The translations under genes were made by a program, and so were the position numbers. A stretch of DNA of 64,000 nt from Nitrosopumilus sp. (lineage in GTDB: Archaea > Thermoproteota > Nitrososphaeria > Nitrososphaerales > Nitrosopumilaceae): NCBI GenBank assembly GCA_965249555.1, contig OZ252243.1, positions 64,001-128,000 on the forward strand, written 5' to 3'. Below, piece after piece: positions 13,901-15,785 of the stretch (within the stretch, counting starts at the first letter, position 1; every line of letters starts with the position of its first letter). The notes below the pieces were generated by a model, which was not told the origin of the DNA, did no database searches, and saw only the letters and a list, made by a program, of their open reading frames with translations.

Positions 13901-15785
13901 AGGTATCCTGAATTAGACAAGAGGATTGAAAACACATATCTTCAAAAAAGTATTGCTCATAACAAAGCGTCTCTGTATGATAGCTATATTCGTTCCATTC
14001 GTTGGGCGACTGACAGAATAGGAGATTCTGGTGTTATTGCATTTATCACAAATGCGGGTTTTATTCAATCTGATGCAGGTTCAGGAATACGTGCTTCATT
14101 ATATGAAGAATTTACAGATGTATGGTGTTTTGATTTGAGGGGAAATGGGAGAATCACTGGTGATGGACGAAGTATCTTCGAATATCCTGGTAAATCAACA
14201 GGAGGAACACGAACACCAGTCGCAATAATTATTTTAATAAAAAACCCAAAGAAAAAAGATTGTAAAATAAATTATTATGCAATTGGGGGTGAATTCTATT
14301 CTGGAAAAGATAAGAGAACCAAAGTAAAACAATTGAAATCTATCAAAGGAATAAATGATTGGCAGAACATAACGCCTGACAGACACCATGATTGGGTAAG
14401 TCTGCGTAGTGAAGAGTTTTACAAGTATGCAGTTATAGGAGATAAAGGGACCAAGGCAGGCAAAAACAACAACGCAATATTCAAACTATATTCTGGAGGA
14501 TTAGCGACTAGTCGCGATATATGGGTATACAATACATCCAAAGACGAACTCGCTAAAAACATGAATGTACATGTAAATTATTGTAATAATCAAGATTTGG
14601 ATAATATTATTTTTGATCCTAGAAAAGCTAAATGGGATAGAGAAGTCATAAAAAGATTAAAACGAAAAAAATCTATATTTAATGAAAATAAAATAAGAAG
14701 ATCATTATATCGCCCCTTCTTTAAACAATATCTATATTTTGAATATGCTTACATCCACGATCAAGCACTCATACCAAAATTCTTCCCAAAAGGAGATTCT
14801 GAAAATATTGTAATTTGCATTCCGGACAAAGGCAAATCTGGGATGTTCTCTACAATCATCACAGATATTACACCTGACTTGCACATAATTGAACAATCAC
14901 AGTGTTTTCCTCTTCTTACATATGAGGATAACACATTGAGAGAGAGAGAGAGAGAGAGAGAGAGAGAGAGCAAACGCATCGAAAATCTCGTCATCATCAT
15001 ACCACACAAATACACAGGAGAGCCATCCGTCATTATCACAGATACTACCCCCGACCTCGAAGCCATCCATCACGGACAATGCTTCCCATTCTACTACTAC
15101 AAGGAGGGTCGCCGGCGGCGAGAATATCCTTGATTCAACATTACAGGAATACCAAACTCACTACAACGACAAAGAAATAACAAAAAAGGACATCTTTTAC
15201 TACATTTATGGCCTGTTGCATCATTCGAGATATAAGAAAAAATTTGCAAATTCACTATCAAAGGAGATGCCAAGAATTCCAATGGCTCCAGACTTTGGAA
15301 AGTTTTCAGAAGCAGGACAGGCTTTGGCATATCTGCATCTCAACTATGAGAAATGTCAAAAATACAAGATAGAACCAAAAGTAAAGTTTGGAAAGTTGAT
15401 AAAGATGTCATTTCCAAAAGTCAAAAAAGATGGAAAGAGTGTAACTGACAAGACGAAACTAAAGATAAATGGGTTTATAGTATTTGAGAAAATCCCGGAG
15501 ATAAAATACAAAGTGAATGGCAGAACCCCATTAGAATGGGCTATTGACAGATACAAATTCACAACTGACAGAGACAGTGGAATAACAAACGACCCAACAG
15601 CAGACATGACAGAGCAAAATACAACAGAGATGATTCAAAGACTAATCTACGTCAGTACGGAATCAGATAAAATAATATCAACACTATCCAAACTGGAATT
15701 TGAGCCAAAGGACTGGACACCTACAAAGACAGGTCTTGACAAGTTCTCAGATCCTAAAGAATACCAATCAAAGATTGGTACATAA
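10955..15785 (+). CDS. Type ISP restriction-modification enzyme (Mrr-like nuclease, SF2 helicase, N6A MTase, TRD), copy 1, phase-shifted at an (AG)n tract
   Basis: DTGIDL...AIQCK, MACGTGKT, DEAH, EPFAGTG, GNPPYS, YRPFFKQ. C-terminal ENILD...KDIFYYIYGLLH...PRIP...YKVNGRTPLEW lies in another frame; adding one AG gives one 1610-aa ORF. Confidence 0.93.
14939..14970 (+). repeat. (AG)16 microsatellite inside the Type ISP TRD
   Basis: Counted directly; encodes (RE)5. Confidence 0.95.

Follow-up and report, generated by a model that had tools for sequence, protein, structure and literature searches.

Repeat-driven phase variation of restriction-modification (R-M) systems is a textbook form of bacterial bet-hedging that has been studied mostly in pathogens. 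In the portions of the review literature drawn on here, the ON/OFF switching of bacterial R-M genes by repeat-driven frameshifts is described as well known, and switching of specificity is ascribed to inversions in hsdS genes. The relevant part of a 2025 review places the distribution of repeat-driven R-M phase variation in archaea among the topics for future work. The present analysis concerns two paralogous Type ISP R-M genes of a Nitrosopumilus sp., both located on the plus strand of a stretch of 64,000 nucleotides (nt), the window, which corresponds to positions 64001-128000 of a single-contig genome of 2.23 Mb with 34% G+C. In each of the two genes, a long dinucleotide tract separates two tandem copies of a segment of the target recognition domain (TRD). 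Coordinates below refer to the window unless another source is named.

Type ISP enzymes, which as a class translocate in an ATP-dependent manner, cleave upon collision and hemimethylate an asymmetric site, are known structurally from LlaGI and LlaBIII. In the parts of the LlaGI study of Kulkarni et al. 2016 (PMC4872093) that deal with the TRD, the β-hairpin 1347-1358 is reported to stabilise the TRD core, and Loop VI (1365-1374) to be one of three TRD loops that read the target. Target position +3 is read by H1368, G1372 and Q1373, while the helices from I1395 and the guide subdomain form the most conserved part of the domain and read no bases (same parts of PMC4872093). The residue numbers of that paper equal the chain index of 5FFJ plus 164, as verified at H1368, G1372 and Q1373. 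In phmmer searches, the methyltransferase (MTase)-TRD part of the window gene matches LlaGI (5FFJ) with an E-value of 3.7e-82 and LlaBIII (4XQK) with an E-value of 3.8e-80, and its GNPPYS is aligned with the NPPY catalytic motif of LlaGI and LlaBIII. Pfam assigns Mrr_cat_2, ResIII/Helicase_C, ISP_coupler, N6_Mtase and Type_ISP_C to both copies. By homology, both window genes are Type ISP R-M enzymes, with a TRD that is broken by the tract in the assembled states.

The two genes are referred to as copy 1 and copy 2, and the two tandem TRD segments in each as module 1 (M1) and module 2 (M2). In our reading, to which we assign a probability of roughly 0.7, selection maintains the tract as a repeat-driven switch of the reading frame, and two of the frames are productive. 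Replication slippage in (AG)n would change n, and n mod 3 would set what is translated behind M1. In the linker state (n = 2 mod 3), the DNA of M2 would be read in a stop-free frame as a flexible Ser/Thr linker, giving a fused enzyme of about 1610 amino acids (aa) that uses M1. In the M2 state (n = 1 mod 3; copy 1 as assembled), the second hairpin and a different Loop VI would be translated, and the chain would then end. In the nonsense state (n = 0 mod 3; copy 2 as assembled), translation would meet an early stop, and the gene would be off. The features of the two copies are the following.

10955..15133, plus strand: long open reading frame (ORF) of copy 1, 1392 aa; Mrr-type nuclease, superfamily 2 (SF2) helicase-like ATPase, ISP coupler, N6-adenine MTase, N-terminal half of the TRD, M1, an (RE)8 stretch, M2, stop
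14801..14923, plus strand: M1 of copy 1 (ENIVICIPDKGKSGMFSTIITDITPDLHIIEQSQCFPLLTY), equivalent to the LlaGI β-hairpin 1347-1358 plus Loop VI 1365-1374; Loop VI part at 14876-14902
14938..14970, plus strand: tract of copy 1, (GA)16 + G, 100% perfect; putative frame selector
14981..15109, plus strand: dual-coding cassette of copy 1; M2 (ENLVIIIPHKYTGEPSVIITDTTPDLEAIHHGQCFPFYYYKEG) in one frame, Ser/Thr linker in the +1 frame
15110..15133, plus strand: segment behind M2 of copy 1; extra C at 15110, run of rare Arg codons CGC CGG CGG CGA, stop of the M2 frame at 15131-15133
14970..15785, plus strand: linker frame and C-terminal TRD half of copy 1 (core helices, guide subdomain); Type_ISP_C positions 159-340, stop at 15783-15785
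55204..59334, plus strand: long ORF of copy 2, 1376 aa; domains as in copy 1; n = 24 leads into the third, nonsense frame
59047..59169, plus strand: M1 of copy 2, from three-frame translation
59184..59232, plus strand: tract of copy 2, (GA)24 + G, 100% perfect
59243..59395, plus strand: dual-coding cassette of copy 2; Loop VI of M2 is TPDLQVNFNGQ; M2 ends at 59371, extra C at 59372, stop of the M2 frame at 59393-59395
59232..60047, plus strand: linker frame and C-terminal TRD half of copy 2; Type_ISP_C match

M1 and M2 are tandem copies of a 41-residue module, with the tract between them, inside the TRD. In copy 1, which as assembled (n = 16) is in the M2 state, the upstream frame enters M2, continues into RRRREYP and stops (EYP*) at 15131-15133. 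In copy 2 (n = 24), it enters the third frame and stops at 59334. The linker frame, ANASKISSSS...GGENILDSTLQEY...IFYYIYGLLH, extends without interruption as far as 15785 (copy 1) and 60047 (copy 2). By frame arithmetic, n = 2 mod 3 (17 in copy 1, 23 in copy 2) yields the fused protein of about 1610 aa, and either copy is one repeat unit short of or beyond this state. The sequence-only reading of the window had anticipated this anatomy. Its claim of a module that occurs twice in tandem around (AG)n in both paralogues is borne out by the three-frame translation and the tract coordinates, and the stop-free Ser/Thr linker and full enzyme of about 1610 aa that it expected for n mod 3 = 2 follow from the frame arithmetic, as does the distance of a single unit from full length (16 to 17, 24 to 23). 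Translation likewise confirms that copy 1 reads M2 and stops at EYP*, and that copy 2 runs into a nonsense frame.

The Type_ISP_C profile of Pfam is matched at positions 1-163 in the long ORF and at positions 159-340 in the downstream frame, and since it is divided between two frames, the break falls inside the TRD. All domains are present and intact in both copies, in upstream ORFs of 1392 aa and 1376 aa and downstream frames of 271 aa. The whole 2.23-Mb genome contains only three dinucleotide tracts of at least six units, namely the two tracts of the window and one (AG)6; the prevailing tandem repeats of this genome have units of 12 and 15 nt. Both tracts are extreme outliers genome-wide, which excludes chance as their origin.

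With the C-terminal frame as the query, matches were found in 4 of 61 relatives and in 36 of 401 genomes of the family, the window's own genome being counted in each. A second route, the search for a degenerate M2 DNA motif in one genome per species, gave 17 matches, all in Nitrosopumilus, Nitrosopumilaceae or Cenarchaeum. Loci and their states were tallied by hand from reading of the junctions. In this tally, the order M1-repeat-M2 is present at 27 loci in 18 Nitrosopumilaceae genomes from four genera, so that the search of other Nitrosopumilaceae for the same architecture, which the sequence-only reading had proposed as a check, was successful. The remaining homologues have a single module in one frame, which is the canonical form, and M2 resembles the module of these proteins (e.g. 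PYK..GEFSVFITD..PDLEVVHHGQ). Beyond the family, 1 of 344 sampled genomes of the phylum matched, weakly. The loci form a larger subfamily, Y (22 loci), and a smaller one, X (5 loci), to which the window genes belong. Relative to the M2 frame, the linker frame is shifted by -1 in Y and by +1 in X.

The switch site is occupied by very different repeats. (GA)n is found there with n = 5, 5, 5 (imperfect), 10, 14, 16, 16, 20, 21, 24 and 26, and the other short units are (CA)6, G11 and (ACAG)17. Among the longer units are the 7-mers CCTCAAA (10 copies), AGACTCC (10 and 17 copies) and CGCAATC (9 copies), and the 8-mers AGCCAGTC/AACCAGTC (5, 5, 6 and 6 copies) and AGTCCACC (7 copies). The longest array, at L070 5140-6107 (G406:C1), consists of 88 copies of the 11-mer TCAGAACCCAC and spans 968 nt, with all three frames open throughout. 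At four loci, the site is without any repeat. The ten types of repeat unit have lengths of 1, 2, 4, 7, 8 or 11 nt, none of the ten being divisible by 3, and all ten are free of stops in the three forward frames.

Some loci carry additional elements. At L019 970-1250 (G076:C1), two tandem M2 cassettes lie in the alternative frame with a G7 run between them, which makes three modules altogether. The sole locus with M1, M2 and the C-terminus in one frame (L002, G028:C203) has a frame-breaking (CA)21 tract at 583-624, about 700 nt upstream of M1. On the reverse strand of L004 (G015:C68), a more distant MTase-TRD gene is broken by an (AG)13 tract at 914-940, with the MTase on one side and the TRD on the other.

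Selection on the Y subfamily was assessed with 14 M2 segments of 37 codons, leaving out L056 (one-codon insertion) and L059 (near-duplicate of L043). In the M2 frame, the proportion of synonymous differences (pS) is 0.64 and that of nonsynonymous differences (pN) is 0.18, which corresponds to a pN/pS of 0.28. The other two frames have pN/pS values of 1.6 and 2.0, the latter being that of the linker frame. Pairwise differences at the first, second and third positions of the M2 codons number 780, 441 and 1629. In the X subfamily, pN/pS in the M2 frame is 0.29 (5 sequences), or 0.34 when only the three frameshifted lineages are considered. Conservation of M2 at the DNA level, as a binding or recombination site, was considered and rejected, because the third codon positions of the M2 frame are the most variable. 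Judged from these substitution patterns, M2 is under purifying selection as a peptide and not as DNA, although a stop comes next and the remainder of the domain lies in another frame.

The linker frame is subject to a constraint of a different kind. It is open in 15 of 15 Y segments, and the third frame is closed in 15 of 15. When synonymous codons are resampled with the genes' own codon usage, the chance of an open -1 frame per Y segment is 0.14 on average (range 0.035 to 0.27). All five X sequences also have an open linker frame. What is kept is the open frame, not the sequence of the linker peptide (pN/pS 2.0). By this comparison, the cassette is dual coding, with two frames of the same DNA under constraint.

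In the larger subfamily, the M2 frame ends in a conserved manner. In 14 of 16 Y-type M2 segments, the end is ATGA, in which the M2 stop TGA overlaps an ATG in the C-terminal frame that reads M(K/M/I)DNITD. As for the remaining two, G423 has GTGATG, and the other is the internal cassette of the locus that holds two M2 copies. ATGA is also present at seven further loci. The 16S rRNA of the window's genome has the 3' end GGATCACCTCCT, and 12 of 14 loci match its Shine-Dalgarno complement over 5 nt or more, 3-12 nt upstream of the ATG. Public collections contain 380 stand-alone proteins matching the C-terminal half (114-366 aa, E ≤ 1e-10), and among the 120 stand-alone C-terminal-half proteins listed, about 52 start with M(M)xDNITD. 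A single-module homologue, G143:C1:548099, is split alike, with ...FPMVTYRND* overlapping ATG-ATT-GAC. A slippery heptamer for a -1 shift at the end of M2 was also considered for this subfamily and rejected, none being visible in the M2 segments.

The natural reading of this arrangement is that in the larger subfamily the M2 state would imply two translationally coupled chains, chain A ending with M2 and chain B consisting of the C-terminal half. The stop that overlaps the ATG after the Shine-Dalgarno-like sequence would allow the C-terminal half to be made as a coupled second chain, and we infer that the resulting split enzyme is active. For the G423 type, a complex was predicted between chain B and the C-terminal 248 residues of chain A. 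The median interaction prediction score from aligned errors (ipSAE) of the predicted complex is 0.40, against 0.02 for the best of three controls, and lends weak support. Of 80 solved complexes and 110 mismatched pairs, 58 and 2, respectively, attain this mark. At ipSAE ≤0.60, it is attained by only 7 of the 80 solved complexes, and by both of the mismatches that passed. The predicted local distance difference test score (pLDDT) of the partner is 78-82, and the runs agree in at least 13% of contacts. Since the fused form has been solved (LlaGI, LlaBIII), the A+B pass may be due to likeness alone.

The overlap of stop and start that characterises the larger subfamily is absent from both window copies. 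Four members, the two window copies and two relatives, have a single extra C directly after AAGGAGGGT that offsets the M2 frame from the C-terminal frame. The extra C is missing in G028:C203, where M1, M2 and the C-terminus are in one frame. A restart at a non-canonical codon was rejected for the window copies, as no candidate codon is suitably spaced from the Shine-Dalgarno-like sequence. In copy 1, the M2 product ends with RRRREYP and is 217 TRD residues short. In view of the purifying selection on M2 in the frameshifted lineages, something must use M2. In the M2 state, the window's subfamily would produce a truncated protein, or would need a +1 ribosomal shift.

A programmed +1 ribosomal frameshift after M2, resulting in a fused M1-M2-C-terminal enzyme like that of the G028 relative, appears improbable and would apply to the window's subfamily only. 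Several observations speak for it, with the AAGGAGGGTCGCCGGCGGCGA region as the candidate site of a prfB-like shift. The offset is due to the single extra C right after the Shine-Dalgarno-like AAGGAGGGT, and the next codons are the rare CGC CGG CGG CGA, with CGG accounting for 1.9% and CGC for 3.3% of Arg codons. ARAGORN found no tRNA-Arg(CCG). The offset is identical in four diverged members, G028:C203 codes for M1-M2-C-terminus in a single frame, and M2 is under purifying selection in the frameshifted lineages. However, no slippery, shift-prone P-site codon is recognised, the overlapping C-terminal frame (VAGGE) accounts for the GC-rich codons as well, the tail sequence of L011 differs, and neither an experimental nor a comparative signal specific to frameshifting was found.

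According to the alignment with LlaGI, the numbering of which is taken from the parts of the study cited above, the duplicated module corresponds to the hairpin and Loop VI, and the part behind the switch to the helices and the guide subdomain. The Loop VI sequences are TPDLHIIEQSQ in M1, TPDLEAIHHGQ in M2 of copy 1 and TPDLQVNFNGQ in M2 of copy 2. The three modules differ exactly in Loop VI, and the amino-acid changes between both M2s cluster there. As the modules differ in Loop VI, a specificity change between the states is plausible, and the split form would use the Loop VI of M2, and hence would read a different base at position +3 of the target. A difference in target specificity between the two productive states is nevertheless a tentative proposal. 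The same caution applies to the complete scheme, in which a three-position frame selector might swap Loop VI between a fused enzyme with M1 and a two-chain or frameshift-rescued enzyme with M2 that reads another +3 base, the third frame being off.

The two window genes may also differ in specificity for a separate reason. Copies 1 and 2 share 96% identity over 10833-14144 and 88% over 14347-15861. The only unalignable patch between the paralogues, 14144-14347 versus 58394-58590, maps to MTase Loop III of LlaGI (approximately residues 1117-1180), a target-reading loop. As the paralogues differ in the Loop III region, copies 1 and 2 probably recognise different sequences, irrespective of the tract state.

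The state of each locus was defined by the frame of M1 in comparison with the frames of M2 and the C-terminal half. Among the 27 loci, nine are in the linker (fused) state, eight in the M2 state and eight in the nonsense state, one is decayed (G409), and one has M1-M2-C-terminus in a single frame (G028:C203). The six loci with no repeat, (GA)5 or (CA)6 comprise four in the linker state, two in the M2 state and none in the nonsense state, compared with 8 of 19 in the nonsense state among the loci with long repeats. L009 and L084 have no repeat and are locked in the M2 state. That loci with a short repeat or none are never in the nonsense state is as expected if the linker and M2 states are productive and the nonsense state is a transient off state.

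Differences in repeat number are seen between closely similar copies. In a metagenome-assembled genome (MAG), G214, two copies are 99.5% identical over 4.5 kb, and the 1317 nt surrounding the repeat show 0 mismatches. Their 8-mer arrays comprise 5 and 6 units, so that one copy is in the nonsense and the other in the linker state. The window paralogues have n = 16 and n = 24, with flanks that are identical at 140 of 150 positions on each side. As in a contingency locus, a non-triplet tandem repeat lies inside the ORF, and the repeat number differs between near-identical copies. We infer that switching takes place within populations. A metagenome scan with the two flanks of the tract and a gap gave 0 matches, and the only contig from a scan with the degenerate M2 DNA motif (L069) was rejected as a false match with no M2 architecture. 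The idea of the sequence-only reading that the tract selects among three products gains support from the varied non-triplet repeats, the selection on M2, the open linker frame, the presence of all three states among the loci, and a duplicated module that includes the counterpart of LlaGI Loop VI, precisely where M1 and M2 diverge.

It is hardly credible that the states are an assembly artefact, i.e. that the tract lengths are miscalled and that every cell is full-length. Long perfect dinucleotide runs are error-prone in long-read consensus, and the contigs from public runs break at the tract. However, a conserved second module that has a stop of its own and an overlapping start is beyond what miscalls can produce, as are repeat-less loci in the M2 frame (L009, L084). 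Nor can miscalls explain why repeats of 7, 8 and 11 nt differ by whole units. The conserved anatomy cannot arise from assembly errors, though the states of single loci may be misstated.

Decay of the genes to pseudogenes, with dead enzymes and a neutral expansion of the repeats, is very unlikely as well. Such a scenario could account for the fact that both window copies are out of the full-length frame, that an IS66 element is found just downstream of copy 1, and that some relatives are decayed (G409), with stops in several matches. It is at odds with the intact ORFs upstream and downstream, which have all domains, with the purifying selection on M2, and with an alternative frame that is kept open. 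Moreover, ten independent repeat types are found at one site, none of them a multiple of 3, and nine loci are fused.

Several points weigh against a switch with two productive frames. The Shine-Dalgarno-like bases of the larger subfamily double as codons for the conserved KVM of M2. The score of the A+B complex is weak, and chain 1 folded poorly (pLDDT 35-39). An AlphaFold2 model of the fused relative L002 (G028), with a mean pLDDT of 75 and a predicted template modelling score (pTM) of 0.71, was rejected as evidence either way on docking. In this model, pLDDT is <50 at residues 220-279, which comprise most of M1, the linker and the start of M2. As MAFFT placed the single-module homologues on M2, the model reproduces the alignment and is uninformative about the docking module. 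In the window's subfamily, the beginning of the C-terminal frame lacks ATG, GTG and TTG codons, and the M2 product of copy 1, without core helices and guide, may be inactive. The contrast between locked and repeat-bearing loci is no more than suggestive (hypergeometric p about 0.07), and the loci lack independence, with the MAG G214 alone contributing 8 of the 27. Assemblies, many of them MAGs, can give wrong repeat lengths, which makes the state of any single locus uncertain. The contigs of four public runs with the stretch, examined over 9000-17600, break at 14928-14980 and yield no tract lengths.

A plain ON/OFF switch is rather unlikely in our view. In this case, only the fused state would be active, and M2 would be the leftover of a tandem duplication, conserved by gene conversion from single-module paralogues. 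M2 indeed resembles the module of single-module homologues, several paralogues per genome are common, and the window's subfamily is without a restart after M2. Repeat-based ON/OFF control is also the known rule for bacterial R-M genes in the review passages mentioned at the outset. However, conversion from an in-frame donor would leave the openness of the -1 frame in 15 of 15 segments unexplained, and across loci of the same frame offset, pS is 0.64 with a pN/pS of 0.28. The architecture 3' of M2 is co-conserved, with the stop/ATG overlap in 14 of 16 segments and the Shine-Dalgarno-like sequence upstream. Finally, the repeat-less L009 and L084 are locked in the M2 state.

The surroundings of the two genes contain further repeats and mobile elements. 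Between copies 1 and 2, there are housekeeping genes, including those for family B DNA polymerase, PPDK and TIM. IS66-family transposase genes are located at 16120-17448, directly downstream of copy 1, and at 33797-35146, and they are 97% identical over 1.4 kb. A 421-aa AAA ATPase encoded at 6038-7303 has a weak BrxC/BrxD match (E-value 1.3e-9), and may be a further defence gene near copy 1. A perfect 13-nt tandem repeat, TTCCAATTCCTTC, is present at 10794-10936 and 55082-55186, with 11 copies at one paralogue and 8 at the other, and ends 18 nt before the ATG of each paralogue. Four copies are found at genome positions 1938412-1938470, together with about 200 nt of common upstream sequence, ahead of a third defence operon (proteins of 1355 and 1110 aa). 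The repeat is stop-free in every frame and may represent another element of variable length, located in the promoter or 5' leader of defence genes. Outside the window, this genome of 34% G+C has seven poly-C/poly-G runs of 11-13 nt, at 46418, 499852, 708997, 1798981, 1833927, 1950627 and 2178472. There may be several contingency loci in this genome.

Ammonia-oxidising archaea are among the most abundant marine microbes. In these free-living organisms, the tract would act as a device that goes beyond simple on/off control, with selection keeping two of the three frames and at least ten unrelated repeats recruited to one site. If the states do differ in target, it would represent a new, recombinase-free route to changed restriction specificity, which would affect marine archaeal virus-host dynamics. 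As protein design, it would also be a case of frame multiplexing found in nature. How the TRD of Type ISP enzymes is assembled can readily be tested on the split and fused forms.

Repeat-mediated phase variation of R-M systems as such is already known. The new elements are the three-way frame selector, the dual-coding cassette, the fused versus split outcome, and the archaeal host with convergent recruitment of many repeats. A search of the full-text literature, with subscription-only papers and supplements outside its reach, returned nothing on phase variation of archaeal R-M systems or on a Type ISP switch of this design. By term search, Type ISP does not occur in a 2024 review of archaeal R-M systems, and phase variation occurs there in one reference title only. 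These searches are consistent with the statement of the sequence-only reading that no description of the architecture in archaea was known to it.

In overall design, the window genes are most readily compared with LlaGI and LlaBIII of Lactococcus (5FFJ, 4XQK). Like these, they combine an Mrr nuclease, an SF2 ATPase, a coupler, a gamma-class N6-adenine MTase and a TRD in one polypeptide, and the TRD elements align, hairpin and Loop VI included. The match in sequence is strong, with E-values of 3.7e-82 and 1.5e-115. In contrast to the lactococcal enzymes, which have one module in one frame, the window genes have a duplicated hairpin and Loop VI, a frame-shifting repeat in between, a dual-coding second copy and an archaeal host.

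Among systems with variable repeats, the Type IIG locus cj0031/cj0032 of Campylobacter jejuni reportedly undergoes phase variation at a poly-G tract, the length of which determines whether there are one or two ORFs. The likeness lies in a large single-chain R-M gene that is present as one or two ORFs depending on repeat length. The Campylobacter locus is said to switch only ON and OFF, and to be devoid of a duplicated module, dual coding or a coupled restart. In the Type I hsdS gene of NgoAV from Neisseria gonorrhoeae, a poly-G frameshift is said to result in a truncated S subunit with another specificity. There too, a frameshift at a repeat gives an alternative functional recognition polypeptide. 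The NgoAV product is reportedly a truncated form of a subunit with two TRDs, whereas the alternative frame in the window genes encodes a second recognition loop, in DNA that doubles as a linker.

The Type III mod phasevarions of Haemophilus, Neisseria and Helicobacter, as far as they are described in the review passages used here, share with the window genes the slippage of a repeat inside an R-M ORF that changes the frame. They have two outcomes, and the out-of-frame product is junk, whereas in the archaeal family two of the three frames are selected, and fused versus split or truncated products would contain different modules. The hsdS shufflons, such as SpnD39III of S. pneumoniae, resemble the proposed switch, within the scope of the same passages, in the heritable and reversible choice of target-recognition segments. 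The shufflons achieve it by site-specific recombination between inverted repeats with silent cassettes, whereas in the archaeal genes the choice would be made by the reading frame at a tandem repeat, and would require no recombinase.

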